Below, piece by piece: positions 345 through 15,163 of a stretch of 32,000 nucleotides of DNA. A program made the translations under genes and the position numbers. The notes under the pieces are model-generated. The model had not been told where the DNA came from. It saw nothing but the letters and a program-made list of their open reading frames with translations, and searched no databases. Positions within the stretch are counted from its first letter, which is position 1; each line of letters opens with the position of its first letter. Origin of the DNA: Ferroglobus placidus DSM 10642 (GTDB lineage: Archaea > Halobacteriota > Archaeoglobi > Archaeoglobales > Archaeoglobaceae); NCBI RefSeq assembly GCF_000025505.1, contig NC_013849.1:1470001-1502000 (forward strand), in the 5' to 3' direction.

Positions 345-590
345 ATGATCAAGAGATCTAAATGGGAAATAACTTATGCGATTCTTAAATCCATTCAAAA
401 CGGCGAAAAGTCGAAGACTCGCATAATGTACGAGGCGTACTTAGACTGGAGAAATTTTAGCAGATATATAAAATTTTTAATTGATAAAAATCTCGTCGTC
501 GAAAAGAACGGAGGAAAGCTGGAGATAACGCAAAAAGGAGAAAAGATTCTGAAAATCATGGAGGAGCTAATCGAACTTATAAAAGACTAA
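345..590 (+). CDS. Small winged-helix DNA-binding protein (archaeal wHTH regulator, COG3432/HTH_45-like)
   Basis: 81-aa ORF with GGTGGAGGG 7 nt upstream of the ATG. KWEITYAILKSI..SKTRIMYEAYLDWRNFSRYIKFLIDKNLV..EITQKGEKIL has the HTH-plus-wing layout of small archaeal wHTH proteins (recalled family resemblance). Confidence 0.7.
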   Translation: MIKRSKWEITYAILKSIQNGEKSKTRIMYEAYLDWRNFSRYIKFLIDKNLVVEKNGGKLEITQKGEKILKIMEELIELIKD

Positions 591-693: not shown

Positions 694-716
694 GGTAGTG
701 TCACTATAATGTTGAT
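694..716. repeat. IS1-family terminal inverted repeat (transposase-distal end): GGTAGTGTCACTATAATGTTGAT
   Basis: Matches the reverse complement of 1429-1451 (GGTAATGCCTCAGTAATGTTTAT) at 17 of 23 positions by hand alignment. Confidence 0.75.
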
Positions 717-1150
717 AAATTATAGTAATGAATCCACAATTTAAAAGAATTTTCGAGCATTTCCGAGGATTTTGAGAATCTGATTGATTTTCTTGCGAAT
801 CTCGGATTATCATTTCTCAGAGTTAAGAATAACCTTTCAACGTGGTTCGTTCCTCCTCTTCTTACGATTCTCTGCCTGTAAGGAATCAAATTATAAGCGT
901 CCCAGCGATCCGTGTAGAAAATTGCTTTCCGCTTTATTTCATCGCCAATTCCGTCCCACAATTTCTTGAAAGTATCCACAGAACGATCTCCTATTGCATA
1001 ACTTATTATTTTTCGGGAATTTCTCTCTAAAGCAATCCAAATCCAGATTTCGTTTTCCTTTTTCTTAACAAAACTCCAAGCTTCATCTAACTCGATAACA
1101 GGCTTTTCCGATCTAATCTCATTTCTCAGGTCTTTTTTTAGAAAATTCTC
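704..1150 (-). CDS. IS1-family transposase, DDE catalytic part (InsB-like frame with no start codon of its own at the frame opening)
   Basis: Open frame from 1150 reads ENFLKKDLRNEIRSEKPVIELDEAWSFVKKKENEIWIWIALERNSRKIISYAIGDRSVDTFKKLW..FYTDRWDAYN..GTNHVERLFLTLRN..FSKS. It carries the IS1-type D..D..E signature (ELDEAWSF / TDRWDAY / HVERLF). The track lists only the GTG-initiated tail 704-979. Confidence 0.8.
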   Translation of the reverse strand, partial: ENFLKKDLRNEIRSEKPVIELDEAWSFVKKKENEIWIWIALERNSRKIISYAIGDRSVDTFKKLWDGIGDEIKRKAIFYTDRWDAYNLIPYRQRIVRRGGTNHVERLFLTLRNDNPRFARKSIRFSKSSEMLENSFKLWIHYYNLSTL

Positions 1151-1418
1151 TTACCCAAGCTGTCACAGTGTTAGGAGAAAGCTTGAAAATTCTGCTCGCT
1201 TGTCTTATCCCTACACCCTCCTTCACAACAGCTCTAACTACCATCTCCTTAAATTCCTCGGGATAATTCCTCGGCTTTATCGGATTCAAAACGAAAGTTC
1301 TCCCGCAGCTCTTGCATTTGTATCTCTGCCTCCTCTCACCAGATTTCGTGTAATAACAGCCCATTTTCACAGTTTTTATCGATTTGCAATGCGGACACAT
1401 CATCACCGATTTATCCAA
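1119..1418 (-). CDS. IS1-family transposase, N-terminal zinc-finger + HTH part (InsA-like)
   Basis: MMCPHCKS..x..YKCKSCGRTF zinc ribbon followed by an HTH (GIRQASRIFKLSPNTVTAWV). The likely true start is the ATG at 1403 (MMCPHC). Ends at TGA 1121-1119, just after an A7 run. Confidence 0.85.
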   Translation of the reverse strand: MDKSVMMCPHCKSIKTVKMGCYYTKSGERRQRYKCKSCGRTFVLNPIKPRNYPEEFKEMVVRAVVKEGVGIRQASRIFKLSPNTVTAWVREFSKKRPEK

Positions 1419-1428
1419 CTAATTGAAT

Positions 1429-1451
1429 ATAAACATTACTGAGGCATTACC
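1429..1451. repeat. IS1-family terminal inverted repeat (transposase-proximal end): ATAAACATTACTGAGGCATTACC
   Basis: Reverse complement pairs with 694-716 (17/23). Confidence 0.75.
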
Positions 1452-1490: not shown

Positions 1491-2087
1491 ATGAGGTGGG
1501 TAGTTAGTTTGTTGGTTTTGGGAGTGGTAGGAATACTACTCGGAAGCGGAACACTCGCGTACTTCAGCGACACTGAGACAAGCGAGGACAACTACATAGC
1601 GGCTGGAACGCTTGAGCTCAAGCTTGGAGACGGTGACAACACGTGGTATGACGATCCAGACATACCAAACTACACCATCAGCGATGTCTACCCAGGATGG
1701 AGTGACTGGGTTGACTTCTACGCGAAGAACTTTGGAAGCATCGACGGTGACCTTTACATGAAGGTCACATACACGGAGAACAGTGGGGACAACCCCGAGG
1801 CTGAAGGTTCTCCGGATGATGCAGTTCTTGACGACTACCTATGCGTTGCAATTACTGTTGGTGGAAGTTCTCTTAACCTCAACACCTACGATGAAAACAA
1901 TGATGGATGTGTTTCCCTTTCAGAAATTGCTGATCAGTACATTTCGCTTGGTGACTTAGCTGCAAACGACATGGTTAACATCCGAATCGATGTGAACATC
2001 CCAACAGACGTTGGGAACGAGATTCAGGGAGACACTGTAACTGTTGACGTTGAGTTCAAGCTAATGCAGGACGGAGCATCTCCATAA
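1491..2087 (+). CDS. TasA/camelysin-like secreted protein, paralogue 1 (SipW-type signal peptide; candidate major fibre subunit)
   Basis: GAGGTG lies 7 nt before ATG 1491 (the track starts at GTG 1482). N-terminus is MRWVVSLLVLGVVGILLGSGTLA|YFSDTETSEDNYIAAGTLELKL, the SipW-cognate junction seen in TasA. It also has a PGW..FYAKNFGS core and a C-terminal GNEIQGDTVTVDVEFKLMQ motif. Acidic protein, with mostly C-ending Asp/Asn/Tyr codons. Confidence 0.8.
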   Translation: MRWVVSLLVLGVVGILLGSGTLAYFSDTETSEDNYIAAGTLELKLGDGDNTWYDDPDIPNYTISDVYPGWSDWVDFYAKNFGSIDGDLYMKVTYTENSGDNPEAEGSPDDAVLDDYLCVAITVGGSSLNLNTYDENNDGCVSLSEIADQYISLGDLAANDMVNIRIDVNIPTDVGNEIQGDTVTVDVEFKLMQDGASP

Positions 2088-2126
2088 CACTCCTATCCCA
2101 ACTAAATTTTTTAAGAGGTGCCAGAG

Positions 2127-2903
2127 ATGAGAAGTGTTGCACTGAGCATCATTGTTGTATGCATAGCACTTTCAGTAGCTACCCTCGGCACATGGGCAGT
2201 CTTTTATGACGAGGAGGTCAGTGAGGGAAATTACATTGAGGCAAGCACCCTCGATATTCACCTTGAGAACCACGACGAAGATGCTGACCAACAGTGGCTT
2301 GTCTTAAATTCATATCCTGGAACCGATGAGGATAATCCAGGACAAAGCAATTGGATGGGGAGTGGACAGATAAAAATATTTAATGACGGGAGTCTCAGGG
2401 GCGACCATTTGGAAATTGCCTTTGAGTTCAGGTGCTACGAAGATGATGATGGTGATGTGTTCAACAGCGCGGTATATCCCTATGATTTCACATACAACTC
2501 CTCCAAGCACCGCATAGGTCCAGAGTCGGATACAAACCAGAGTGGTATAGGGTACTGGCTCAAGGAGATAAAACTAGTCAAGCTCAACTACGGTCTTTCC
2601 TCAAACCGGATGGGCACATATAACCTCCTCAATGACTTGTGCTCCGCAGATGGAGATCCAGAGTGCACAATGAACGATCTCGCAAATTCAGTAATAGTTC
2701 TACCAGCAGACTATACCCCACTAGTTGGGGGCAGTGAGTACGGTCTAATTCAGATGGACTTTGAAATGCCTGACACAGGACAACCTCAAAACGACTGGCA
2801 GGGCGATGTCTGTGAGATGATCGTCCACGTGGCACTTGCGCAAGATTCAAGCCAGCAAGTACTCAGCCCGGGTGGAGTTACCGTCAACCTTCCATCGAGC
2901 TAA
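2127..2903 (+). CDS. TasA/camelysin-like secreted protein, paralogue 2 (SipW-type signal peptide)
   Basis: AAGAGGTG lies 6 nt before ATG 2127 (track start is GTG 2118). Signal junction ..SVATLGTWA|VFYDEEVSEGNYIEASTLDIHL, core IKIFNDGSLRGD, C-terminal QNDWQGDVCEMIVHVALAQ. Confidence 0.75.
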   Translation: MRSVALSIIVVCIALSVATLGTWAVFYDEEVSEGNYIEASTLDIHLENHDEDADQQWLVLNSYPGTDEDNPGQSNWMGSGQIKIFNDGSLRGDHLEIAFEFRCYEDDDGDVFNSAVYPYDFTYNSSKHRIGPESDTNQSGIGYWLKEIKLVKLNYGLSSNRMGTYNLLNDLCSADGDPECTMNDLANSVIVLPADYTPLVGGSEYGLIQMDFEMPDTGQPQNDWQGDVCEMIVHVALAQDSSQQVLSPGGVTVNLPSS

Positions 2904-2921
2904 TAATTAAGCTGACCAAAA

Positions 2922-3509
2922 ATGTCCAACCTTAAAATTTTTTTATTCCTCTTTTTGCTTTCTTCTCTTGTAGTTTATCTCATTCCGAATGTTCTCTCTG
3001 CGTATGCTCTTCCAATTGATGAAAAGGAAAAGGAAAAAGCTGTAAAATTCTGCTTTGAAACCGGAGAAACTCCTCCACCTTTTCTTCAAGCCTCGAACTT
3101 CGCTCCGGGAAATGTGGCTGAAGGGACTTTGAAGATAGCGAACTGCGGAGAGAAGAAGTCGAAGCGATTCGGATTGTCTTTAAGCTATAGTTTCTTCGAT
3201 CCGAAAGGAGATAGCGAGGCGGAAAGCTTTTTGTCAAACATCACGTTGATCGAACTCAAAATAGGAAAGGAGAACGACTTACTTTATAGGAACTTGCTAA
3301 GCGAAGTGGAGGATTTGAACGGAAACGGAGTCAAAGACCTTCACGACCTCTCACTCTCGCCCGTTTCGGTGAAGTATAAGGTGGAACCTTGCGGGGAGGA
3401 ATCATGTGAGTACCACTACCTTTATATTAGAGTAAAGTTTGATGAGAGTGCCGGTAACGAATTTCAAGGAGATAGGGTTGAGCTGAACTTCACTCTGATG
3501 CTCGGGTGA
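2922..3509 (+). CDS. TasA-like fold protein, paralogue 3 (ordinary signal peptide, no SipW-type junction)
   Basis: Signal peptide MSNLKIFLFLFLLSSLVVYLIPNVLSA. Core APGNVAEGTLKIANCGEKK and C-terminal GNEFQGDRVELNFTLML match the motifs of paralogues 1 and 2, but the N-terminal A-x-F-x-D-x-E junction is absent. Confidence 0.6.
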   Translation: MSNLKIFLFLFLLSSLVVYLIPNVLSAYALPIDEKEKEKAVKFCFETGETPPPFLQASNFAPGNVAEGTLKIANCGEKKSKRFGLSLSYSFFDPKGDSEAESFLSNITLIELKIGKENDLLYRNLLSEVEDLNGNGVKDLHDLSLSPVSVKYKVEPCGEESCEYHYLYIRVKFDESAGNEFQGDRVELNFTLMLG

Positions 3510-3513
3510 TGCT

Positions 3514-3975
3514 ATGAGGTTTGCGTTAACTCTAATCCTGGTAGCCGGAGTACTTTTAGCTCTCTCTTTTCACACCGCTGCATTTTTCTACGACATAGAA
3601 AAAGTTACGGCGGAAATTTACGCCAACTGGCACACTCAGGCCGACGATTTGAAAGTAACCGAAGTTAATTTTTGTGAAAAAATCGAAGAGCTAAAAGACG
3701 ATTTCAAAGTCTTGAAGCTTGAAAACGTCGGAAGCAATGAAATAACTGTGTGGAAGATCAACGCGAATTCAAGCTTTATCGGAGTGCTATCGATAGGTGA
3801 CGACACCGTTGACGTGCAATGGTATTGTGACGAAGAAGGGGAGTTTATTGTGGATTTAGCCATCTCCCCCTACGATCGATCTTTCGTCGCATTAAAACTC
3901 GAATGTCCGGCTGATGTAACTTTTATTATGGAAGATCTTTCGAAGAAAACTTGGAGGTGTGTTGTTGAGGATTAA
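3514..3975 (+). CDS. Small secreted protein, paralogue 4, with SipW-type junction (divergent, lacks the QGD C-terminal motif)
   Basis: MRFALTLILVAGVLLALSFHTAA|FFYDIEKVTAEIYA resembles the junctions of paralogues 1 and 2. A KLENVGSNEITVWKI core-like strand is present. The ATG lies 4 nt after the upstream stop. Confidence 0.55.
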   Translation: MRFALTLILVAGVLLALSFHTAAFFYDIEKVTAEIYANWHTQADDLKVTEVNFCEKIEELKDDFKVLKLENVGSNEITVWKINANSSFIGVLSIGDDTVDVQWYCDEEGEFIVDLAISPYDRSFVALKLECPADVTFIMEDLSKKTWRCVVED

Positions 3976-4822
3976 GCTTGCAATTTTAATCGTCGTCGCC
4001 TCCGTACTTGCTTACCAAATACTATCTGGAGAAATAATACCTCTCGTAGTTTTGAGCGGTAGCATGGTTCCCTACATGTATCCGGGGGATTTAATACTCG
4101 TTAAGAAAATCGATCCGAACGAAATATCTGTTGGAGACGTAATATGCTTTAAAGATCCTTCGGGGAGAGAAAACGTTCTGATAACGCATAGAGTTGTTAA
4201 CGTAACCGAAAGAGACGGAAAACTCGTGTTCAAAACTAAAGGAGATGCGCTTGAGGAAGTGGATTTTTTTGAGGTTAAAGAAGAAGATATTGTTGGTACA
4301 CCAGTTCTTTTGATTCCTATGATCGGCTATCTGCACGAAAATAAAAAACTCGTTTACTTTTCAATGATCTTGCTTCCCTCCATCCTCATTCTTTTCGTTG
4401 AGGTTAAAAATCTAAAAAATCCTGAAGTCGTGGAGAGGTTGGAGGAAAAGAAGAAGAGAGTTAGGCAGTTTCTCAAGCGAAGACAGTCGATTAGCTTTAA
4501 AAGAGCAGTACTGACCATAATTGTTTCTTACGTGCTTATTTACGTTCTCTTGCATCAGGACTTCGTTCCCGTTCAGAGAGTAACTATTGGAGAAGGAAAA
4601 GTTCGAATACAAGAAAATTTCGACCCGTATGATGTTTACTTCCTCATTCCACCTTTTTACATCGAAAATCTTTACAGAATAAATCCGGTGTTGCCGGAAG
4701 TAGCAATCGTTTTATATCCGCTAATGCTCTCATTACTTCTATCACCCCTCTGGAAAACTTACGGCGGGAGTGGTAAAATATGGGGAAAAAGGTTTTACTT
4801 GCGGTCGTTGTTGCGATTTTAG
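3959..4822 (+). CDS. Signal peptidase I, ER/archaeal (SipW-like, S26B) type, with a C-terminal multi-TM extension
   Basis: Catalytic boxes VLSGSMVPYMYPGDLILV (Ser), LITHRVV (His general base rather than Lys) and TKGDALEEVD. N-terminal TM anchor. Residues beyond ~130 add three hydrophobic segments and a KKKRVRQFLKRRQ loop. The start overlaps paralogue 4 by 17 nt. Confidence 0.85.
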   Translation: MLLRIKLAILIVVASVLAYQILSGEIIPLVVLSGSMVPYMYPGDLILVKKIDPNEISVGDVICFKDPSGRENVLITHRVVNVTERDGKLVFKTKGDALEEVDFFEVKEEDIVGTPVLLIPMIGYLHENKKLVYFSMILLPSILILFVEVKNLKNPEVVERLEEKKKRVRQFLKRRQSISFKRAVLTIIVSYVLIYVLLHQDFVPVQRVTIGEGKVRIQENFDPYDVYFLIPPFYIENLYRINPVLPEVAIVLYPLMLSLLLSPLWKTYGGSGKIWGKRFYLRSLLRF

Positions 4823-5757
4823 TTTTTTCGTCAGCCTTTGCTACTTACAGCGCCTACAACGATTTAAAACCTAAGAAGGTTACGGTAAAAAGAAACGTAA
4901 CTATAGGAACTTACGAACTTTACTACGACTATTACTCCACTGTGTCGAAAGAAAATCCTCTGTGGGGCGAGGGAATGAAATTGTTTAACAAAGACGTTTA
5001 TTTTTCGAGTGTCTCACCCGTTCTAAATATCACGTTTAACTTAATTCTTCCGGAAAGCAACTTTGAAGTTGAATACGAAACTAAGCTTTTGATCACCTCG
5101 TCAACCTCAGACAAGGTGTTTTGGGAACTTGAAAGAGTTATTGGCTCGGGAGTAACGGTTTTAAATTCGAGTAAATTCAGCTACTCATTTTCTTTGAACA
5201 TTCTTGAACTTGAAAGGGAAATAGAAAGCATAGAGCGAAGCCTCGAATTTAAAGGCGGTTCTAAAACGATAAAAGTCGTTACAAACGTTTACGCAAAAGG
5301 ATCGGAGAAGGAAATTAAGGATAGCGTTGAAATGACGATAAAACCTTCTGGGAGCTACTACACGGTTTCTTCTTCGGGAAAGAAAAAGACAGTTGAAAGA
5401 ACGGTAAATGAAGTAAAAAAAGTTCCTCCTTCTCAGAGGGAGTACATTTTCGCATTATCTAAAGTAGCGTTGCCGATTCTCGGTATTATTGCGAGCGTTT
5501 ACGTTTATAGAATATCTTCTCTCTCGGAAGACGAAAAAGCTCTCAGGAAATTTAGGAAGTGGATAAGCAAAGGAAAACTTCCGGAGGTTAGGATGACGAC
5601 GATTGAAATTGAATCCCTCGAAGACCTTGTTGATGCGGCAATCGATATGAACGAAAGAGTTATTCACGATGCCGAGAAAAACGCATTCTTCTTCGTACAC
5701 GATGGAATTCTTTACATTTATAAAGGAAAAGCGAGGCAGGGTGAAGAGGAGACATAG
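4780..5757 (+). CDS. Bitopic membrane protein, DUF5305-like SipW-associated accessory protein
   Basis: N-terminal TM (VLLAVVVAILVFSSAFA), a ~200-aa beta-rich external domain, a second TM (ALPILGIIASVYVY) and an ~80-aa cytoplasmic tail ending ..FFFVHDGILYIYKG. Architecture and gene context match my recollection of DUF5305. Overlaps the peptidase gene by 43 nt. Confidence 0.5.
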   Translation: MGKKVLLAVVVAILVFSSAFATYSAYNDLKPKKVTVKRNVTIGTYELYYDYYSTVSKENPLWGEGMKLFNKDVYFSSVSPVLNITFNLILPESNFEVEYETKLLITSSTSDKVFWELERVIGSGVTVLNSSKFSYSFSLNILELEREIESIERSLEFKGGSKTIKVVTNVYAKGSEKEIKDSVEMTIKPSGSYYTVSSSGKKKTVERTVNEVKKVPPSQREYIFALSKVALPILGIIASVYVYRISSLSEDEKALRKFRKWISKGKLPEVRMTTIEIESLEDLVDAAIDMNERVIHDAEKNAFFFVHDGILYIYKGKARQGEEET

Positions 5758-5829
5758 CGGGGCGTGGATTTGAACCACGGATCTGCGGGTTATGAGCCCG
5801 CCGGGATTACCTGGCTACCCCACCCCGCT
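5755..5829 (-). tRNA. Initiator tRNA-Met (CAT anticodon)
   Basis: Minus-strand sequence AGCGGGGTGGGGTAGCCAGGTAATCCCGGCGGGCTCATAACCCGCAGATCCGTGGTTCAAATCCACGCCCCGCTA folds as a cloverleaf. It has an A1:U72 pair, three G:C pairs closing the anticodon stem (GGG/CCC) and a CTCATAA loop, which are archaeal initiator hallmarks. No encoded CCA. Confidence 0.9.
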
Positions 5830-6096: not shown

Positions 6097-6549
6097 ATGT
6101 CAGATCTTGTGGTCATTCTACTTTCCGCCTTATCAGTTGCCATGGCTTTGGGCGTTGCGAAAAGCAGGGACAACTTCTACTCAGCCTTGTACATGTCGGC
6201 AACACTTCTTGCTGTGGGCGGAACTTACGCTTATCTTGGCGTTCATTCCGTTCTCGCTTTAATAGCTTTCATATTTATCGGAGCTGTCGGCATAATAACG
6301 ATAGCTTTAGCAGCGACTTACAGATTTATCAACCCGGTAAGGCACAGCGGATACTGGGCGCTGTTTTCAGCTTTCGTCGCTGTTTTTCTTGGAACGACTC
6401 TCGCTGTTTTCTCGGTTTCCCTTCCAAAATTTAAAGACGCTTTCAGGGAATTCATGGTCGATTATCAGACTTACGTTTTCCTTCTCGTAGTTATGGTTAC
6501 CCTCCTCTTGTTGTCTGCGGTAAGCATGGTTAGGAGGGATGCGGAATGA
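6097..6549 (+). CDS. fqoJ: F420H2:quinone oxidoreductase subunit J (NuoJ/ND6 homologue)
   Basis: 150-aa polytopic membrane protein, first gene of an operon whose order J-K-M-L-N-A-BC-D-H-I-F matches the Archaeoglobus fqo cluster as I recall it. Overlaps the next gene by 4 nt. Confidence 0.8.
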   Translation: MSDLVVILLSALSVAMALGVAKSRDNFYSALYMSATLLAVGGTYAYLGVHSVLALIAFIFIGAVGIITIALAATYRFINPVRHSGYWALFSAFVAVFLGTTLAVFSVSLPKFKDAFREFMVDYQTYVFLLVVMVTLLLLSAVSMVRRDAE

Positions 6550-6851
6550 TCGCTTCTACTCTTGCAGCTTCAGTTATAGTGCTGATGATCGGCTACTACA
6601 CCTTGATAACTTCGAGGGATCTGATAAGGTTACTAATATCTTTAGAACTGATGTTCGCGGCTGTCTTCCTCTCTCTTTTACCTCTCTTTGCGATAGATGC
6701 TCTCACAGCGGAGGGAATGGTTGTAATGGTCGCTTCCCTTTTCACGAGCAGTAGCGAGCTTCTCGTTTTAATCTCCGCGATCATACTCTTCGATAGAAAA
6801 TTCAGAGGGGTTGCGATGGAAAAAGTATCGAGCGGAGGGGATGAGCTGTGA
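6546..6851 (+). CDS. fqoK: F420H2:quinone oxidoreductase subunit K (NuoK/ND4L homologue)
   Basis: 101 aa with 3 TM segments and the NuoK-like LIRLLISLELMFAAVFL helix containing the conserved membrane Glu. Confidence 0.85.
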   Translation: MIASTLAASVIVLMIGYYTLITSRDLIRLLISLELMFAAVFLSLLPLFAIDALTAEGMVVMVASLFTSSSELLVLISAIILFDRKFRGVAMEKVSSGGDEL

Positions 6852-8281
6852 TCGCATTGCTTTTACCTTTGATAGCGGTAATAGTTGCCCCTTTCTTTAA
6901 GCCGAGGGAAGCTGCAGTATTATCGGCTGTAGCGTTTTTCGCGTCTTTCGTCGCTCTTATTATTGACGCCTTCACCGGAGCTTACTACAGAATTGACATC
7001 GTTCAGGCAGCTGAGCCAGTTGGAAACATCTACATGTTCGGAGATGCGGTAAGCCACGCTTTCGGATTTACGATAGCATTTGTCTCTGCGATGGTCGCTT
7101 TGTACTCCTATCCCTACATGGCTCACAGATTCGAGGAGATGGGGCTTGGAGAGGACGAGTTCAAAAAGTACTGGTTCCTCTACAACCTGTACGCTGCTTC
7201 CATGCTCTGGCTTGTTTATGCAGGCAACCTAATTCTCCTCTACGTTTTCCTCGAAATCTCCCTCGTTACTTCGTTCCTTCTGATATACTTGTACGGCTAC
7301 GGTAATAGACAGTGGGTCGCTTTGCTGTACTTCGTCTGGACCCACATAGCCGGAGCTTTGGCGTTAATAGGATTCCTGCTCATAGGCTTTGAAAACAAGA
7401 CTCTCGCGTTGGACAGCATAAAGACAGTCTCTTTCCTCGCTTGGCTCCTCGTGTTTTTGGGAATGATCGTAAAGTTGCCCGGATTTGGGGCTCACATCTG
7501 GCTTCCGTGGGCTCACGCTGAAGCCCCAACGCCGGTTTCAGCTTTACTGAGTCCCCTCACTGTTGGATTGGCTGCCTACGTCTTGCTCAGAATTTACTTC
7601 ATAGAGCCGTCGTTCATAATCGACCACAGAATCCCGATATTTGCCTACGGCGTCTTAACGAGCGTTTATGCTGGTTTAGCGGTCTTTAAGCAGGACGACT
7701 ACAAAAGGCTTCTCGCCTATTCTACCGTCTCTCAGATGGGTTACATACTCATAGCCTTCACCCTCGGAGCTGCCGGAATACTCGGAGTCGTCATTCAGTA
7801 CATTTCCCACGCTTTCGGAAAGTCCATATTGTTCATGACCGCCGGAGCTATCATAGCGACCTTCCACGGTTTGAGAGATCTTAAGAAGATGAGCGGAATG
7901 CACGAATTCGTTCCGACGATTTCTAATGCGGCTTTATTAGGCTTCATGAATTTGAGCGGAATTCTCACGATAGGTATGATCGGGGAGTTCTACATACTGA
8001 AAGGTTTAACAGATACCTTCGGATTGCCGAGTGCGATAAACAGCATTGCCATGGCGACGATGCTTTCTGTAGTGGTCGTCTTCATAATTTCCGGACTCTA
8101 CAGCTTCTACACGATGAAGAGAATCTACTACGGAACTCCGGCAGACTATTCAAAAGTTTCTGTTCACAGGATGTTAGACTCACATCTCTACATCATAGCA
8201 GCCTTATCAATCCTGTTGCTTCTTCCTCCGTTCGCTACTTGGTTTATAGACACTCTCGTAAAATTCTTGGGGGTGGCGTGA
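6848..8281 (+). CDS. fqoM: F420H2:quinone oxidoreductase subunit M (NuoM/ND4 antiporter-like)
   Basis: 477-aa polytopic protein with GAHIWLPWAHAEAPTPVSALLS, the NuoM/ND4 signature. GTG start overlaps the fqoK stop. Confidence 0.85.
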   Translation: MIALLLPLIAVIVAPFFKPREAAVLSAVAFFASFVALIIDAFTGAYYRIDIVQAAEPVGNIYMFGDAVSHAFGFTIAFVSAMVALYSYPYMAHRFEEMGLGEDEFKKYWFLYNLYAASMLWLVYAGNLILLYVFLEISLVTSFLLIYLYGYGNRQWVALLYFVWTHIAGALALIGFLLIGFENKTLALDSIKTVSFLAWLLVFLGMIVKLPGFGAHIWLPWAHAEAPTPVSALLSPLTVGLAAYVLLRIYFIEPSFIIDHRIPIFAYGVLTSVYAGLAVFKQDDYKRLLAYSTVSQMGYILIAFTLGAAGILGVVIQYISHAFGKSILFMTAGAIIATFHGLRDLKKMSGMHEFVPTISNAALLGFMNLSGILTIGMIGEFYILKGLTDTFGLPSAINSIAMATMLSVVVVFIISGLYSFYTMKRIYYGTPADYSKVSVHRMLDSHLYIIAALSILLLLPPFATWFIDTLVKFLGVA

Positions 8282-8282
8282 A

Positions 8283-10160
8283 ATGTGGCTATGGTTAGTC
8301 CTCTTGCTTTCACCAATAATCGCAAGCGTACCGATAGCGATAGCTTGGGAATTCAACAGAAACCTCGGAAGGAAGTTGCCCGTGATTTCAGTTGCTGGCT
8401 TATTCGTCTCATTCGTAATCACGCTCTACATCTTACTTTTCGTCGAAGAGGGAAGATTTTCTTATCCTTGGCTTCCCGGGATTGAAATAGCATTCATAGT
8501 CGATTACCTCAGCAAGTACATGGGTGTTTTAACGGGCTTCATAGCCTTCGTCATAGGAGTCTATGGACTCGAGTACATGAAAGACGACTACAGGCTCGGA
8601 TGGTACTGGTTCTTCTTCAACCTCTTCACGGCTTCGATGCTAATGGTCGTCTACAGCGACAACTTACTCTCTCTGCTCATAGGATGGGAGGGGCTTGGAA
8701 TAGCTTCTTGGGGATTAATTGGGCACTGGTTTAGAGACGACGACGAGCTGAGCTATGTAGGTGTGATTAACAGAAAGGTTGGATTTTTGAAGATGTTCTG
8801 GAGCCCGAGCACCGGAGGGTGGAGAGCTATATCGACGATAAGAATTGGAGACATGCCTATGTTTTTCGCTGTGGCAGCGATATTCGCTTTCGCCGGAACT
8901 CTCAACATTTCCCAGATAAACTGGGAGCTTTTGATTGAGAGAATTGGCAGCTTTGGTGTTGCCGTCCTTCTCTTAGCATTTTTAATGGGTCCCTTCACGA
9001 AATCGGCACAGCTCCCCTTCAGCGAGTGGTTGATGACAGCTATGACAGGTCCAACGACAGTTTCAGCTTTGCTACACTCTGCTACGATGGTTGCAGCGGG
9101 AACTTACCTCTTCATGAGGATAAGCTGGTACGTAGAACCTTGGAAGATTCACGATGCCGGAATAGAATTCGTTTACCTCCTCGTCCTCTTCTTAGGTTTG
9201 ATTTCCTCCCTCTACGGAGCTCTTGTTGCTTTGGCGAGTAGAGAGAGAAAGGTTTTGCTTGCAGCCTCGACGATGTCGAGCCTCGGACTCATGTTCGCTG
9301 CGGCAGCTGCAAGCAAGTGGATTGGAGAGTTCGCAATAGTCGTGGCTTTCTGGTACTTGATAACCCACGCCTTCGCTAAAGCTACGCTGTTCCTCGTTGC
9401 CGGACACTTGATCCACGAAACCCACGACAGGTTCCTCTGCGGAGACTTAGAAGTAGCGAAGAAGATGAAGCTGACTTTTGTCGTGACGATCATAGCAACC
9501 GTGATGCTCGCTGGAATTCCGCCATTAACGGCTTACTGGGTAAAGTCTGCTATGGACGAAGTCATGCATTCTCTGCATGAAGTGGGAGAAGCTCCGCTCT
9601 TCTTGCTGATAATAATCTCAGCAGTTTACTCAGCATTCTTAGCTAAATTCCTCAGCATGAACTTCGTTAAGGGAAGGCACGTGCATCTCCACTTGCACGG
9701 CGGAGGTTTGATGAAGACCGGCTACACGCTAATGGTTTCTATGCTCTTCTTACTTCTTGCTGTCATACTGCTCGGAATTGATGAGCACGTCGAAGAATTC
9801 GTTAAAGCTGGATTCCACGCAACTTCTTTCATGGTCGGTGTGCTCGTTACAGTAACTTACGCGATCGGTTTCGTCAAGCCGACTCTCGAAACAAAGATTG
9901 GACAAGTTCTCGCGGACAGATTCTATTTAATGGCTCTCAACGACTTCATAGTTCCCAAAATAGGTTGGGCTTTCGTTACGGCTGTGGATTACGGGAACAA
10001 AGCTATCGACTTCTTCGCCCACAGAGCAATTCCGGGATTGTTTGAGGTTGTTAGTAAAGGAATTAGAGCTCTTCAGACTGGTAGGCTTACCCACTACGTT
10101 CAGCTCGCCCTCGGAGCTTTAATGCTGTTGCTGATAGCGGTTTCCGTGGCGGGGTGGTAG
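8283..10160 (+). CDS. fqoL: F420H2:quinone oxidoreductase subunit L (NuoL/ND5 antiporter-like)
   Basis: 625 aa with FSEWLMTAMTGPTTVSALLHSATMVAAGTYL, the NuoL/ND5 signature. A long C-terminal extension is consistent with the lateral helix. Confidence 0.85.
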   Translation: MWLWLVLLLSPIIASVPIAIAWEFNRNLGRKLPVISVAGLFVSFVITLYILLFVEEGRFSYPWLPGIEIAFIVDYLSKYMGVLTGFIAFVIGVYGLEYMKDDYRLGWYWFFFNLFTASMLMVVYSDNLLSLLIGWEGLGIASWGLIGHWFRDDDELSYVGVINRKVGFLKMFWSPSTGGWRAISTIRIGDMPMFFAVAAIFAFAGTLNISQINWELLIERIGSFGVAVLLLAFLMGPFTKSAQLPFSEWLMTAMTGPTTVSALLHSATMVAAGTYLFMRISWYVEPWKIHDAGIEFVYLLVLFLGLISSLYGALVALASRERKVLLAASTMSSLGLMFAAAAASKWIGEFAIVVAFWYLITHAFAKATLFLVAGHLIHETHDRFLCGDLEVAKKMKLTFVVTIIATVMLAGIPPLTAYWVKSAMDEVMHSLHEVGEAPLFLLIIISAVYSAFLAKFLSMNFVKGRHVHLHLHGGGLMKTGYTLMVSMLFLLLAVILLGIDEHVEEFVKAGFHATSFMVGVLVTVTYAIGFVKPTLETKIGQVLADRFYLMALNDFIVPKIGWAFVTAVDYGNKAIDFFAHRAIPGLFEVVSKGIRALQTGRLTHYVQLALGALMLLLIAVSVAGW

Positions 10161-10161
10161 T

Positions 10162-11385
10162 ATGGAGCTCACGATACCTCTAATAATTTTAGCTCTCGGA
10201 GCTGCATTCGGGATAAGAAAGCCGGAGATAAGCTTGGTTACTGCTTTGGTAGCTTTAGCGTTGTCCATAGTCGTTGAAGAGGCGATACTCGTTTCGGCTA
10301 TGATCGCCTTCGTAGCGATATTGAACATAGCGGCGCTCGTGCTGATGAAGAAGAGCTATTTGAGGGGAGTTGACTACGCTTTAGTATCTCTAATGCTTAT
10401 CGCTACGATACTCGCTCTGTATTCAACGAGCTTTGCCATGTTGGTTTTAGCTTTCATCCTCGTAAGCACTCCTACCTATATGCTCGTCATGGCTTCGGAA
10501 AGCGGAGCTAAGGTGGATGTCGGTGTGAAGTACATAACTTTCATGGTCGTAGCTACGATACTCTTCATAATAGGAGCCGCTCTAACGATTTACGGAGGAA
10601 GCGTAAATTCTGAGAGCATTCAAACAATTGGTATTTGCTTGCTAATTCTCGGCATCGCGATGGAGGTCGGAGCGGCACCTCTCCACTACTGGGTTCCCGA
10701 CGTTTTCGACACAGCCGATCCCGTTCCGGCTTCGATTATAGCAAGCCTTGCGAAATTCGTTCCGTTCGTCATAGCTTTCAAGATACTGTTTACTGTGAAC
10801 ACAGAGAGAGCTCTGCTTTTCATAGGAGTTGTAGCTGCGATATCAATGTTTGCCGGAAACATAGGGGCTTTAACTTCTAACAAGCCCGCGAGAATCCTCG
10901 CTTATTCGACAGTTGCTAACATGGGCTACGTAATTGCAGCTCTCACAGTCTTTTACAAGCCGGAATTCGTTTACCTGGCTTTTGCCGGAGTCCTGCTTCA
11001 ACTCTTCGCCAACGCATTCGGAAAAATAGGATTTTTCACGGCTATAAGAGAAGAGGGGACGAACAGCGTGTTCTCTTACTTAATGGCTCTTTCCTTCATC
11101 GGACTTCCACCTCTCCTCGGCTTCTGGGGGAAGTTTTACATTCTCGCTGCTTTAATTTACGCTAACGTCATCTGGCTTGCAGTTCTTTTGGTCATAAATT
11201 CGGCGATGTCGGTGCCTTATTACATAAGGTTAGCAAACACTCTTTCAGGAAAACCGAACAAGGGGTTGGCACTGTGCATAATAGGGATTTCAGCGGTAGT
11301 AATGCTTCTCACAGTCGTTCCGCCTAACTGGCTTATAGACTCTTCGAAAGCTTTAGTTAGCTACTTCAAATTGGGAGGTGTCTGA
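10162..11385 (+). CDS. fqoN: F420H2:quinone oxidoreductase subunit N (NuoN/ND2 antiporter-like)
   Basis: 407-aa polytopic protein with APLHYWVPDVFDTADPVPASIIASLAKF, the NuoN/ND2 signature. Confidence 0.85.
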   Translation: MELTIPLIILALGAAFGIRKPEISLVTALVALALSIVVEEAILVSAMIAFVAILNIAALVLMKKSYLRGVDYALVSLMLIATILALYSTSFAMLVLAFILVSTPTYMLVMASESGAKVDVGVKYITFMVVATILFIIGAALTIYGGSVNSESIQTIGICLLILGIAMEVGAAPLHYWVPDVFDTADPVPASIIASLAKFVPFVIAFKILFTVNTERALLFIGVVAAISMFAGNIGALTSNKPARILAYSTVANMGYVIAALTVFYKPEFVYLAFAGVLLQLFANAFGKIGFFTAIREEGTNSVFSYLMALSFIGLPPLLGFWGKFYILAALIYANVIWLAVLLVINSAMSVPYYIRLANTLSGKPNKGLALCIIGISAVVMLLTVVPPNWLIDSSKALVSYFKLGGV

Positions 11386-11386
11386 A

Positions 11387-11749
11387 ATGGAAGGAGCAAT
11401 TGTCGTAGCATTCGTCATAGTTCTCAGCTTAATTGTCGACGTTTCCATATATTTGCTTTCTAAAATTCTGCCGAAGAAGAAACCCACTCCTCTAAAGTAC
11501 GAGCGCTGGGAGTCCGGAAACATCTCTGTAGGTTTTCCAAAGTACACCTTGCCAATGCAGTATTACGGTTTCCTCATGCTTTTCATGGCTTTTGAACCGG
11601 TTGTCGTTCTCATGCTGCTATTCGCGATGTTCCCTGGAGTAACCTATCTCGAATTCCTGATCTTCGTGCTCGTGGTCATGCTTCCCGCATTTTACTTCGC
11701 TTATAAGATAGCGGACGAGGTTTCTCACAGGAGGGATGTGTATGGATGA
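11387..11749 (+). CDS. fqoA: F420H2:quinone oxidoreductase subunit A (NuoA/ND3 homologue)
   Basis: ~120 aa with 3 TM segments and a YERWESGN loop (compare NuoA YECG). ATG 11387 follows GGAGGTG and the fqoN stop. The track's GTG 11378 is the alternative start. Confidence 0.8.
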   Translation: MEGAIVVAFVIVLSLIVDVSIYLLSKILPKKKPTPLKYERWESGNISVGFPKYTLPMQYYGFLMLFMAFEPVVVLMLLFAMFPGVTYLEFLIFVLVVMLPAFYFAYKIADEVSHRRDVYG

Positions 11750-12812
11750 GATGATCGAGTTCTTACATAAAGGTCCACTCGCACCCCTCAAAAAGTGGGG
11801 TACGAAATTCAGCATATGGCCAACTCACCTCGTTACAGCTTGCTGCGGTGTTGAATTGGCTCACGCGTTTGCAAGCGGTTATGATGGAGAAAGGTTGGGC
11901 GTTCTGAACTTCGGAATGGCGAGACAGACGAACTGCATAGTGGTTGAAGGTGCCATCACGAGAAAGATGGCGAGAGCTTTGAAAATAACTTACGAGCAAA
12001 TGCCGGATCCGAAATTCGTGATCGTGATGGGTGCCTGCGGTATTAAGGGAGGAATATTCTGGAACGGATACAACATGGTGAAGCCGTTCGAGGTTGTTCC
12101 AGTAAAGTATTTCGCACCGGGATGCCCTCCAACTCCTGAATCCTTGCTTAGGTGCTTCAGATCGTTGCAAAAGGAAATCGATACTGGAGAAGCGAAAAAC
12201 TCGATAGTTTATCCGGAAGTTAAGAAGGTTGAGGAAGGTAAGAAGAGAGCCAAAAGAGTCCCTCCGTCGCCGAAGTACGTGGCGAATAATCCGTCTGTTA
12301 TCGTCGACATGCCGAGGGAGGAAAAATGGGCGGAAGGAAAGGAAGTTGTAGCGAAACTTTCTGAAATTCTCGGAGAGCTTTGCGAAAAAATAAAGATAAC
12401 CGGGAAGAACAGAGTTGCTATTAGAATTAAAAAGGACAACTTCGTTGAAGCTGCAAAGAAAATGCTCGAAGCCGGATTTGACCACGTCAAATCAGTTAAT
12501 GTTGTTGACGTTCCTCACGAAAATAAATTTATCGTGGAGTACGTGACTTCGAGCTACCTAAATCCGGAATACAGATCAATTCTCGTCACGTTGATATCGG
12601 AAATAGAGAGAAGCGATCCGGTATTTCCGAGCTTAATCGAAGTCTGGCCATCCGCAGATTACCTCGAAAGGGAACTTCACGAGCTTTTCGGCGTTTGGTT
12701 CGAAGGCAATCCTTGGATGGGTAGGAAGTTCCTCTTAGCTCCCGACACCCCGGAAACTCCGCTCAGAAAGGATTTCAAGCTTCAGGAGGAAGTTTACGCT
12801 GGAGGTGAGTGA
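11736..12812 (+). CDS. fqoBC: F420H2:quinone oxidoreductase fused subunit B-C (NuoB/PSST + NuoC/30 kDa)
   Basis: The N-terminal half has the cluster-N2 cysteines (TACCGVELAHA, MGACGIKGG, APGCPPTPE). The C-terminal half has the NuoC motif WPSADYLERELHELFGVWFEGNP. The two are joined by a Lys/Glu-rich linker in one frame. Confidence 0.85.
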   Translation: MCMDEMIEFLHKGPLAPLKKWGTKFSIWPTHLVTACCGVELAHAFASGYDGERLGVLNFGMARQTNCIVVEGAITRKMARALKITYEQMPDPKFVIVMGACGIKGGIFWNGYNMVKPFEVVPVKYFAPGCPPTPESLLRCFRSLQKEIDTGEAKNSIVYPEVKKVEEGKKRAKRVPPSPKYVANNPSVIVDMPREEKWAEGKEVVAKLSEILGELCEKIKITGKNRVAIRIKKDNFVEAAKKMLEAGFDHVKSVNVVDVPHENKFIVEYVTSSYLNPEYRSILVTLISEIERSDPVFPSLIEVWPSADYLERELHELFGVWFEGNPWMGRKFLLAPDTPETPLRKDFKLQEEVYAGGE

Positions 12813-12813
12813 G

Positions 12814-14049
12814 ATGGAAGAGTACGCTCTCGACCTTGTTGTGGAACCTCCTAAAGAGTATCAATCTTACTTTGTTCCGGTCCCGAAGGAATTACTTGAA
12901 GACGCATACAAAAGCGATGATTTCGTCGTCTTTGTCGGACCGCAACACGGTGGAAGCGGACATATGAGACTTATAGTTAGAGTGAAGGGCGACTTCATCG
13001 TTGAGGTCATTCCCGATCCCGGCTATGTTCACAGATCCATGGAAAAGCTCGCGGAGACAAGGCTTTACATTCAAAACATTCCACTCTTCGAAAGACCTTC
13101 CATAATCGATTTCGGAAACTACAATCTCGGTTACGTGAGGGCGATAGAAGATGCGCTGGAAATTGAAGTTCCCGAGAGAGCGAAGTACATCAGAACTATT
13201 CTCGCTGAGCTCGGGAGAATCGGAACTCATCTCTACGATGCCGGAATTCTTGCCGTTTTCATCGGACACACGACCGGGTTTATGTGGCCTTTTGCGATGA
13301 GAGAATTCATAGTTGAAATTTTCACGAGAATTACCGGAACGAGGATAACCGGCTCTTTCATAGTGCCCGGCGGGGTCAGGAGAGACGTCGACGAGAAAAC
13401 TCTGAACATGATTAAGAGAATGCTGGAAGCTTTAGAATACAGGATAAAGAAGTTTGAAAAGGTGTTCATCAAGAACCCAACGACTATTGCGAGGCTGAGA
13501 GAAGTGGGCGTGCTTAGTAAGGAGGATGCGGTAAAATACGGAGTGGTGGGTCCTTTCCTCAGAGCGTCGGGAGTGGAATACGACGTTAGAAAAGTTGAAC
13601 CGTACGAAGCTTACGATGAGGTGGACTGGGAGATGGTCGTTGGTGATGACGGGGATGGATACACGAGACTCCTCGTGAGAGCGGAGGAAATATATCAGAG
13701 CATGAACATAGTGAGGCAGCTCGTCGACAACATTCCGGAAGGAGACGTTTTGAGCGACGACATTATAGCGTTTAACAAGAAAGACATCAGGGGTAGCTTT
13801 TTCGAAGCTTATTCGAACTTAGTTCTCCCGGAAGGAGAATACACGACAATAACTGAAGCTGCAAGAGGCACTTTGCTTTACACAATCGTGAGCGATGGAG
13901 AGTCAACGACTCCCTACAGAGTAAGATTTGTAACTCCGAGCTGGATGTACCTCAAAGGATTTATGGAAGCTTGCAAGGGACACAGACTTGCTGATCTGCA
14001 AGCCATTTACGGAAGCTTCGGGTATTTCCCTCCGGAAGCGGATAGGTGA
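12814..14049 (+). CDS. fqoD: F420H2:quinone oxidoreductase subunit D (NuoD/49 kDa homologue)
   Basis: GPQHGGSGHMRLIV, HRSMEKLAE and a C-terminal RVRFVTPSW are NuoD-type motifs. ATG 12814 follows GGAGGTGA (alternative GTG 12805). Confidence 0.85.
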   Translation: MEEYALDLVVEPPKEYQSYFVPVPKELLEDAYKSDDFVVFVGPQHGGSGHMRLIVRVKGDFIVEVIPDPGYVHRSMEKLAETRLYIQNIPLFERPSIIDFGNYNLGYVRAIEDALEIEVPERAKYIRTILAELGRIGTHLYDAGILAVFIGHTTGFMWPFAMREFIVEIFTRITGTRITGSFIVPGGVRRDVDEKTLNMIKRMLEALEYRIKKFEKVFIKNPTTIARLREVGVLSKEDAVKYGVVGPFLRASGVEYDVRKVEPYEAYDEVDWEMVVGDDGDGYTRLLVRAEEIYQSMNIVRQLVDNIPEGDVLSDDIIAFNKKDIRGSFFEAYSNLVLPEGEYTTITEAARGTLLYTIVSDGESTTPYRVRFVTPSWMYLKGFMEACKGHRLADLQAIYGSFGYFPPEADR

Positions 14050-14059
14050 GGTGTAGGTT

Positions 14060-15163
14060 ATGATGCCTGAGTTCGTGTCTTCGTTGCTTGAAAGGATTTT
14101 GAACGTCTTTACCTCGGAGATGATAAACATTCCAGCGATACAGCCGATCGTAGATAGGCTGATGGAAATTCCTTTAGTAAATTTAATTGTGGCGTTCCTT
14201 CTCTGGAAGCCGATATTTCACATAGTCTTCTTCCCGGGATTAGTGGGTATAATGCTCGTGCTTTTGTGGATCGTTTACTTCGAAAGAAAGCTCACCGCCA
14301 GAGTGCAGTGGAGAGTCGGTCCGAAAGAGGTTTCGAGAAGAACTGGAGGAATTCTCCAAACTCTTGCCGACGGTATGAGGTACTTCTTCCAGGAGGCAAT
14401 AGTTCACAGAGGCGCCGACAAGTTCTACTTCATGCAGTTCCCGCTCCTTTCTTTCTTGCCAGTTCTTCTTCCCATCCTCTTCATACCAGCCGGAGGGTCT
14501 TACGGCATTGACACGCCTTACGCAATTCCGATAGCGGTAGCTCTTATCTCCCTCATCCCGGTCTTCATAATGGGTATGGGATGGGCGTCCAACAACAAGT
14601 TCGCGTTCATCGGAACAGTGAGGGAAGCTTTCCTTTACGTGGCTTATGAGCTGCCATTTATTTTAGCTGTGGCTTCGATGCTTCTGATTTATCAGACGCC
14701 CAATCCCTTCGAAATCGTAGCGAAGCAAACTATTCCGGGGATTTTTCTGAATCCTATAGCTTTCTTGGTGTTCCTCATAACCACGCTAATAGCTACAGGC
14801 AGACTTCCCTTCGACATAGCGGAAGCTGATCAGGAAATCGCCTTTGGACCCTACGTTGAGTATTCCGGAATACTTTTCGGTCTCGTTATGACCGTGCCTT
14901 ACGAAAAGCTCTACATCCTCTCCATGCTGATGACTCTGCTCTTCTTCGGAGGGTGGAACGGACCTTACATAGCGCCACTCGGAGAGTTCTCCTACGTTCT
15001 CTGGTTCTACATCAAGACGTTCGTTATCGTAAGCGTAATAGCACTCGCAAGATCGATTTACGCAAGGTACAGACTCGATCAAACTTTAAGGCTCGGATGG
15101 AGCATTTTGTTTAGCCTCTCATTGATAAGTCTCTTAATTTCGGCGGGGTGGGCGGCATGGTGA
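14060..15163 (+). CDS. fqoH: F420H2:quinone oxidoreductase subunit H (NuoH/ND1 homologue)
   Basis: Polytopic protein with FERKLTARVQWRVGPKE and RLPFDIAEADQEI, the NuoH/ND1 signatures. Confidence 0.85.
   Translation: MMPEFVSSLLERILNVFTSEMINIPAIQPIVDRLMEIPLVNLIVAFLLWKPIFHIVFFPGLVGIMLVLLWIVYFERKLTARVQWRVGPKEVSRRTGGILQTLADGMRYFFQEAIVHRGADKFYFMQFPLLSFLPVLLPILFIPAGGSYGIDTPYAIPIAVALISLIPVFIMGMGWASNNKFAFIGTVREAFLYVAYELPFILAVASMLLIYQTPNPFEIVAKQTIPGIFLNPIAFLVFLITTLIATGRLPFDIAEADQEIAFGPYVEYSGILFGLVMTVPYEKLYILSMLMTLLFFGGWNGPYIAPLGEFSYVLWFYIKTFVIVSVIALARSIYARYRLDQTLRLGWSILFSLSLISLLISAGWAAW

Follow-up and report, generated by a model that had tools for sequence, protein, structure and literature searches.

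A probable TasA-type fibre gene cluster with a dedicated signal peptidase in the archaeon Ferroglobus placidus

Genes of the cluster and their protein families

Six genes, P1 to P6, lie close together on the plus strand of a 32,000-nt stretch of the Ferroglobus placidus DSM 10642 genome (the window, in whose coordinates all positions are given), and they probably encode a donor-strand fibre system of the TasA type that has its own dedicated peptidase, as indicated by sequence, profile, fold and synteny. P1 (1491-2087), a TasA-family protein with a SipW-type signal peptide, is the candidate major subunit; its sequence agrees at 100% identity with a protein encoded in the F. placidus genome. P2 (2127-2903, or from a GTG at 2118) is a larger TasA-family subunit with the same type of signal peptide, and P3 (2922-3509) joins a TasA-family jelly-roll body to an ordinary signal peptide. 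P4 (3514-3975) is a small secreted protein whose signal peptide and donor motif are TasA-like, P5 (3959-4822) is an endoplasmic reticulum (ER)/archaeal-type signal peptidase I, and P6 (4780-5757) is a DUF5305 protein with two predicted transmembrane (TM) helices. Successive genes are spaced by +39, +18, +4, -17 and -43 nt, and all six open reading frames (ORFs) are intact, with no frameshift or stop. An earlier note on this DNA had described six close-packed same-strand genes with gaps of -43 to +39 nt; those coordinates and spacings were reproduced and the six ORFs are real, but the unit does not end there, as a seventh gene, encoding an HTH_45 winged-helix regulator (345-590, plus strand; Pfam HTH_45, 93.8 bits), is the conserved first gene of the cluster.

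The start of P1 is placed at the ATG at 1491, which is also the annotated start, rather than at a GTG at 1482, because a Shine-Dalgarno-like GAGGTG lies 6 nt before the ATG and the orthologues likewise begin with MRW or MK. The form beginning at the GTG gave no match in an exact look-up.

Three of the secreted proteins belong to the family that contains TasA. The Pfam gathering score for PF12389 (Peptidase_M73/TasA) is 22.5 bits, and it is exceeded by P1 (28.8), P2 (27.1) and P3 (27.5, over residues 54-192), with no Pfam match to this family for P4. The NCBIfam model of the SipW-cognate signal peptide (TIGR04088, cut-off 19) is matched by P1 at 45.6 bits and by P2 at 26.8; P4 reaches 14.4, and P3 has no match to it. 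Cleavage is predicted at GTLA|YFSDTE in P1, after Ala23, at GTWA|VFYDEE in P2 and at HTAA|FFYDIE in P4, where the motif is FFYD-x-E. The junction peptides that had been proposed as SipW-type in these three proteins are thus all present, and those of P1 and P2 score over the cut-off, but that of P4 does not. On the TasA equivalog model (NF046066) P1 scores 18.7 against a cut-off of 450; judged from its sequence, P1 is a member of the TasA family and not an orthologue of Bacillus subtilis TasA. No match to TapA was found for any of P1-P6 in Pfam or NCBIfam.

The subunits differ in which parts of the TasA architecture they carry. P1 and P2, which are full paralogues, each possess a signal peptide, a donor motif, a jelly-roll body and a C-terminal N-E-x-QGD strand. 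P3 has an ordinary signal peptide (junction SAYA|LPIDEKE) and no YFSDTE-type donor motif, and its family aligns with the P1 family across the entire body (hhalign, 98% probability, E 3e-13, 163 columns). Across 18 P1 relatives and the P3 family there is little or no variation in the N-[ED]-x-QGD motif and the PG...N-x-G strand. Both had been pointed out earlier as common to P1-P3, and both are there; the accompanying [FV]-x-L, supposed to follow at a spacing of x6, is instead found at x7 in P1 and P2 and at x5 in P3.

P4 is the odd member. Its family aligns with the P1 family at 96% probability over residues 1-38 only (hhalign), that is, over the signal peptide and donor motif, and the remainder is an unrelated, fast-evolving body. 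A phmmer search of this body against 1.84 billion representative sequences returned only its own copy and four matches to short segments of very long proteins (1,274-1,935 aa, matched in several stretches), and a word-indexed search with P4 returned its own copy only. With a profile, 13 more relatives were found, of which the named ones belong to Thermococcus. The AlphaFold2 model of P4 has a pLDDT of 47.5 and was not used for a fold search. Of the four paralogues originally described, P1-P3 stand together in PF12389; P4 is paralogous over its first 38 residues only, and its status as a jelly-roll paralogue is not demonstrable.

Mature P1 and P2 are very acidic (isoelectric point, pI, 4.05; Asp plus Glu, 17-21%), and mature P2 has four conserved cysteines. 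If P1 is cleaved after Ala23 as predicted, its donor strand, Y-F-S-D..., is aromatic at position 2 and acidic at position 4. No twin-arginine pair (RR) occurs within the first 25 residues of P1-P4, so export would be by the Sec pathway.

P1 also contains a canonical EF-hand loop, DENNDGCVSLSE, at residues 134-145 (window 1890-1925), with weak matches to calmodulin and polcalcin. This loop is an insertion common to Geoglobus and two metagenomic relatives and absent from the Thermococcus orthologues. An EF-hand-like loop, DLNGNGVKDLHD, is located in P3 at residues 130-141 (window 3309-3344), and throughout the P3 family, a bacterial (Dehalococcoidia) member included, its Asp residues and Leu do not vary. 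Both loops are EF-hand or dockerin-like and lie inside jelly-roll subunits. A BsaA-type isopeptide triad was considered as well and set aside: a Lys before the N-x-G strand and a donor-strand Asn occur together in 21 of 22 cases, but the Asn is present in 100 of 129 sequences anyway, which makes the coincidence uninformative.

The last two genes encode the probable processing machinery. P5 matches Pfam Peptidase_S26 (30.8 bits) and the NCBIfam archaeal signal peptidase I model TIGR02228 (97 bits against a cut-off of 51.85), and it scores 83.7 against the cut-off of 190 of the SipW equivalog model, NF046067. Its catalytic motifs are SGS35M, ITH77R and KGD96, with S35, H77 and D96 as the predicted catalytic residues; they recur in the four-TM peptidases of related clusters, except for the His motif in a Thermococcus metagenome-assembled genome (MAG, locus L011) as searched. 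TM segments are predicted at residues 1-19, 131-149, 180-198 and 244-262, which would place the catalytic domain outside, followed by a basic cytoplasmic loop and then a short second outside loop of about 45 residues. P6 matches DUF5305 (PF17231) at 176.8 bits (E 5e-52); its predicted TM segments (5-23 and 222-240) flank a large outside domain and are followed by a C-terminal cytoplasmic domain. It is presumed to be the partner of P5. The identifications of the fifth gene as an ER/archaeal-type signal peptidase I, with its Ser, His and Asp motifs, and of the sixth as a DUF5305-like membrane protein are thereby borne out, and each of the models that had been suggested for searching (SipW-type signal, M73, archaeal signal peptidase I and DUF5305) found a match.

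Fold, conservation and relation to described fibre systems

The resemblance to TasA extends to solved structures. When a profile of 18 P1 relatives was compared with all sequences in the PDB, the only proteins matched were TasA (5of1, E 3e-5; 8aur, E 7e-5) and AbpX (9sj2, E 1.6e-3; 9rhp, E 5.8e-3). The profile is needed to reach TasA, since P1 alone (phmmer) gives only weak EF-hand matches in the PDB. The AlphaFold2 model of P1 is beta-rich, with a mean pLDDT of 81.7, and Foldseek ranks the TasA fibre (8aur; E 1e-5, probability 1.0, TM-score 0.45) and the TasA monomer (5of1) as its two best matches in the PDB, as the suggested fold check had anticipated. A Sulfolobus thread subunit comes third. 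Confidence in the P1 model is low for residues 18-34, which take in the signal-peptide junction and the first part of the donor segment, and these residues are not docked in cis. AbpX is not among the top 50 fold matches, and AbpA of Pyrobaculum appears neither there nor among the profile matches; of the two systems drawn on in the earlier comparison, TasA and AbpA, it is TasA proper that is the closest relative.

The name of the Pfam family, Peptidase_M73, is taken from camelysin, and distant relatives are labelled 'ribosomally synthesized peptide with SipW-like signal peptide' in one source. Both facts would suit secreted proteins that form no fibre, whether monomeric surface or matrix proteins or camelysin-like metalloproteases. 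Such an explanation is very improbable here. The metalloprotease version is ruled out, as P1 contains no histidine at all and the HExxH motif is found in none of P1-P4. The solved relatives recovered by the P1 profile, TasA and AbpX, are donor-strand fibres, and a division of subunits into those with donor strands and those with grooves is sensible for a polymer but not for enzymes.

The gene order is conserved well beyond Ferroglobus. One genome per species was scanned, giving 80 loci with P1-like genes; with five loci fetched earlier and the window itself, 86 sequences were analysed, their ORFs being labelled by hidden Markov models built from three clusters and a sample checked against Pfam. 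The conserved order is HTH_45, P1-like, P2-like, P3-like or another small gene, P4-like, long peptidase and DUF5305. All seven positions are seen in Geoglobus acetivorans and Thermococcus sp. 5-4, whose orthologues are named 'TasA family protein' in RefSeq. The order HTH_45, TasA-like gene, four-TM peptidase and DUF5305 is kept in at least nine other archaeal genomes or MAGs with unrelated flanks, and for this reason the arrangement of P1-P6 is far beyond chance. In Geoglobus and Thermococcus about 150 bp separate the P1 orthologue from an HTH_45 orthologue upstream of it, and loci L006, L011, L013 and L032 likewise have an HTH_45 gene before P1.

The pairing of peptidase and DUF5305 is equally regular. 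Beyond Ferroglobus and Geoglobus, the long peptidase with its DUF5305 neighbour occurs in two Thermococcus genomes, an Archaeoglobaceae MAG, a Methanobacteriota MAG, an unclassified archaeon, ANME-1 and Hadarchaeota, and the DUF5305 gene is directly 3' of the long peptidase in all nine of the other archaeal clusters of this type. Of the 86 sequences, 72 have an S26 peptidase of some form beside the TasA-like genes. In most of the bacterial loci (Dehalococcoidia, Bacillota) the enzyme is a short, two-TM SipW-like one and DUF5305 is absent, and one Dehalococcoidaceae locus combines DUF5305 with a short peptidase. In four archaeal clusters (L010, L013, L032 and L035), a short two-TM SipW-like peptidase and a long four-TM one, the latter preceding DUF5305, stand side by side, which hints at a division of labour among substrates.

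Conservation within the cluster is uneven. P2 is the best conserved protein, with 76% identity to its Geoglobus orthologue and 70% to that of Thermococcus sp. 5-4. Against the same Thermococcus cluster, identity is 52% for P1, 35% for the regulator, 31% for the peptidase and 29% for the DUF5305 protein, and P4 shows no BLASTP similarity. Such unevenness points to strong constraint on P2 or else to mosaic horizontal transfer inside the cluster. At the third position in Thermococcus sp. 5-4 (locus L001, 9417-9755) is a protein of 112 residues that is not P3-like and has a signal peptide and a C-terminal TM helix; it could be a membrane anchor, a feature that the Ferroglobus cluster lacks.

Among described systems, the tapA-sipW-tasA operon of B. 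subtilis offers the nearest subunits. P1-P3 belong to the Pfam family of TasA, P1 and P2 have the same type of signal peptide and the same mature N-terminus (A|xF-x-D), TasA heads the matches by profile as well as by fold, and an ER-type Ser/His signal peptidase is present in the operon. In B. subtilis, TasA and TapA are reported as substrates of SipW (background in PMC9245690), and TapA is reported, in work cited in PMC11821415, to fill the first groove of TasA (PMC10151520). Assembly there is by donor strands with neither usher nor ATPase, as it would be in Ferroglobus; the absence of an ATPase, prepilin peptidase or usher within or beside the Ferroglobus cluster was noted earlier and is upheld. 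Ferroglobus has four differentiated subunits where Bacillus has TasA and TapA, with no TapA homologue; P5 has four TM helices and falls under the SipW equivalog cut-off; and the archaeal host adds the DUF5305 partner, the HTH_45 regulator and the EF-hand loops of P1 and P3.

The accessory genes point instead to Tafi, a fibre system experimentally established in haloarchaea (PMC11821415, a 2023 preprint and 2025 paper; PMC12337348, 2025). In the published model, tip, adaptor, shaft and terminator subunits are joined by donor strands (PMC11821415, PMC12337348). Deletion of tafD in Haloarcula abolishes TafA processing and fibre formation (PMC11821415), and TafG is proposed to assist TafD (PMC11821415, PMC12337348). 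Like the Ferroglobus cluster, Tafi and taf-like clusters combine a number of pilin-like subunits with a four-TM peptidase (TafD), a DUF5305 protein (TafG) and a small regulator next to them, and the non-halophilic versions use Sec signals, as P1-P4 would. P5 and P6 show the features of TafD and TafG, namely four TM helices with S26 motifs and an adjacent DUF5305 gene overlapping by 43 nt, the comparison with TafD being with its published description. Clusters of this kind, with DUF1102 pilins, a TafD-like peptidase, DUF5305 and a regulator, are known from Archaeoglobus, Thermococcus, Pyrococcus and one Geoglobus species (PMC11821415, PMC12337348).

It might thus be asked whether the Ferroglobus genes are simply one of these taf-like clusters of Archaeoglobales and Thermococcales, and not TasA-type at all. 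The shared accessory module of four-TM signal peptidase, DUF5305 and small regulator beside several Sec-dependent pilin genes favours this, and the same arrangement has been published for AF_2076-2083, TSIB_1247-1254 and TK_1701-1707 (PMC11821415). The pilins argue otherwise. Those of Tafi and taf-like clusters are TafA/TafE or DUF1102 proteins, but P1-P4 have no DUF1102 match even at E <= 1, P1-P3 pass PF12389, P1 and P2 pass the SipW-type signal model, and the best PDB matches are to TasA and not to TafE. Haloarchaeal Tafi export is moreover by the twin-arginine (Tat) pathway, whose motif P1-P4 lack; TafB is another type of regulator than HTH_45; and TafD has an Ig-like domain where P5 has only its short second ectodomain. 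Ferroglobus is also not among the genera listed with TafD homologues (PMC11821415). Identity with the described taf-like clusters is therefore unlikely, and a TasA-type system that shares their processing module is the preferred reading.

Two further archaeal systems bear on this reading. The AbpX loci of Pyrodictium abyssi and relatives contain a TasA-superfamily subunit with minor subunits, a tip protein, signal peptidase I and DUF5305 (bioRxiv 10.64898/2026.01.04.697558). The AbpX subunit is acidic (pI about 4) and its donor strand is aromatic at position 2 and acidic at position 4, a pattern that P1 would share if cleaved as predicted. The P1 profile nevertheless matches AbpX more weakly than TasA, the peptidases linked to AbpX are reported to have ten TM helices where four are predicted for P5, and the Ca2+ sites of AbpX are at the donor-strand groove, unlike the putative sites of P1 and P3 in EF-hand loops inside the body. 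In the same work, Ca2+-dependent assembly is documented for AbpX and cannulae, at those other sites, and DUF5305 is called a signal peptidase accessory subunit, natural peptidase-DUF5305 fusions being known (bioRxiv 10.64898/2026.01.04.697558). AbpA/AbpB of Pyrobaculum calidifontis likewise forms an archaeal TasA-superfamily donor-strand fibre (PMC9245690), as P1-P4 would. AbpA is related to TasA only at the level of profile and structure, and its operon has the TapA-like AbpB and no dedicated peptidase, the reverse of the Ferroglobus cluster on both counts. Donor-strand structures have been solved for TasA (PMC9674648), TafE (PMC12337348) and AbpX with Ca2+ (bioRxiv 10.64898/2026.01.04.697558).

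The layout of the cluster had been put forward as without precedent, which cannot be maintained, since the same layout has been published for Tafi and taf-like clusters (PMC11821415, PMC12337348) and for the AbpX loci (bioRxiv 10.64898/2026.01.04.697558). A survey of the BsaA/TasA family also describes multi-paralogue operons, and homologues in Thermococcus (PMC11580942). The combination of TasA-proper pilins bearing SipW-type signals with a Tafi-type peptidase and DUF5305 and with groove-only and donor-only subunits is noteworthy, and not categorically new. It argues that the peptidase-DUF5305 pair is a portable maturation unit serving different pilin families.

An insertion sequence before P1 and the flanking genes

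Between the regulator gene and P1 is an IS1-family insertion element of 758 bp (694-1451, minus strand); the copies of an 8-bp target duplication, GCATTTTG, border it at 686-693 and 1452-1459. By inspection, 13 of 18 positions agree between its terminal inverted repeats, and its two minus-strand ORFs, DDE_Tnp_IS1 (68 bits) and an InsA-like protein with zinc-ribbon and helix-turn-helix features, point away from P1. Reading towards P1, a TATA-like box, TTTATATA, comes 11 bp before the element and the P1 ATG 39 nt after it. With IS1 the gap between HTH_45 and P1 is 900 bp; without it the spacer would be 134 bp, against 150 bp in Geoglobus and Thermococcus. Short-read assemblies from two independent read sets are interrupted 46-70 nt upstream of P1, which is what a multi-copy repeat would be expected to cause.

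As IS1 separates P1 from its probable TATA box, expression of P1-P6 in DSM 10642 may be lost or rewired. Without the element the TTTATA box would stand 50 nt before the P1 ATG, and in Geoglobus, where there is no insertion, such a box stands at 42 nt. This similarity, the target duplication and the orientation of the transposase genes away from P1 would also suit a stronger proposal, in which the cluster in DSM 10642 is a silenced or decaying remnant uncoupled from its promoter and regulator. Against decay, none of the six ORFs is disrupted; between IS1 and the ATG, 24 nt from the latter, there is another A/T-rich box, TTTTAT; and the promoter was assigned by sequence inspection alone. That the insertion impairs expression in this strain is possible but doubtful, and much the same can be said of the cluster being a remnant, which would in any case be compatible with a TasA-type fibre function for the intact orthologous clusters.

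Downstream, the cluster is bounded by a convergent tRNA-Met(CAT) gene (5755-5829, minus strand; ARAGORN) that overlaps the stop codon of P6, and a scan for intrinsic terminators 3' of P6 found nothing. Past the tRNA gene are a complex-I-like F420H2 dehydrogenase (Fqo-type) operon (6097-16970), which includes an FrhB-like subunit, and a gene for volactin, of the archaeal actin family (19126-20130, minus strand, 430 bits), both unrelated to the cluster.

Proposed assembly and significance

Taken together, P1-P6 and the HTH_45 gene are likely to form a self-contained seven-gene module for a chaperone-free, TasA-type extracellular fibre. The four precursors, P1-P4, would be exported by Sec, and P5 with its partner P6 would cleave each after the small residue that precedes a [YVF]-[FY]-x-D-x-E motif. 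The freed N-terminal strand would then enter the open jelly-roll groove of the next subunit, in the donor-strand complementation known from TasA, Tafi and AbpX fibres. The shaft may consist of P1, or of P1 and P2. P3 would be an acceptor-only cap, as a protein with a groove and no donor strand can only end the chain at the donor end, and the donor strand of P4 may fill the first groove, so that P4 would nucleate the fibre or cap its other end as a functional analogue of TapA. Such a division into donor-and-groove, groove-only and donor-only subunits reads naturally as that of a polymer, and the individual roles given here to P1-P4 are tentative but plausible. Ca2+ could stabilise or trigger assembly outside the cell, a role to which the strong acidity of the subunits (pI about 4) and the EF-hand loops of P1 and P3 point. 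The HTH_45 protein would regulate the operon.

Several points weigh against this account. The fold of P1 comes from a single-chain prediction, and its TM-scores against TasA are modest (0.45). Fibre formation by P1-P4 is argued by analogy, as are polymerisation, the cleavage site and the dependence on P5 and P6, and with so poor a model the role of P4 is a guess. No membrane or cell-wall anchor is recognisable in any subunit. Because the P1 loop is absent from the Thermococcus orthologues, Ca2+ cannot be essential to the family, and the operon may be silent in DSM 10642 through the IS1 insertion. A literature search, moreover, found no reported experiment on a PF12389-type cluster in Archaeoglobales or Thermococcales. 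To that extent the earlier statement that no such fibre had been characterised in Archaeoglobus-type organisms holds for the PF12389 subtype, but homologues from these two orders had been catalogued in 2022, with their function left open (PMC9245690). The same search found no paper joining Ferroglobus and TasA, the supplementary tables of the Tafi and archaeal bundling pilin papers lying outside it. None of the homologous clusters has another demonstrated function, and of the findings that the earlier note had named as refuting a TasA-type fibre operon, none of those looked for went against it.

A more elaborate version can be imagined but is unlikely as a whole. The cluster would represent a distinct archaeal fibre subtype, in which PF12389 subunits with SipW-type signals are matured by a Tafi-type four-TM S26 peptidase and DUF5305; the fibre would be a defined heteropolymer with P4 as donor-only nucleator and P3 as groove-only terminator, with EF-hand Ca2+ loops and possibly a BsaA-like N34-K79 intermolecular isopeptide lock, stable at 85 C and serving attachment to mineral surfaces in iron-reducing Archaeoglobales.

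The subunit set nonetheless amounts to a directly testable model of how a fibre starts and stops. For filament shearing and mass spectrometry the F. placidus type strain is perhaps the wrong organism, given the IS1 element, and the clusters of Geoglobus acetivorans and Thermococcus sp. 5-4 are uninterrupted. More broadly, the cluster links TasA-type pilins, as in Bacillus, with a processing module of the Tafi/AbpX type. The biology of surface fibres and biofilms in hyperthermophilic Archaeoglobales and Thermococcales is almost unexplored, and the cluster is a compact candidate for a heat-stable, self-assembling protein fibre in these organisms.

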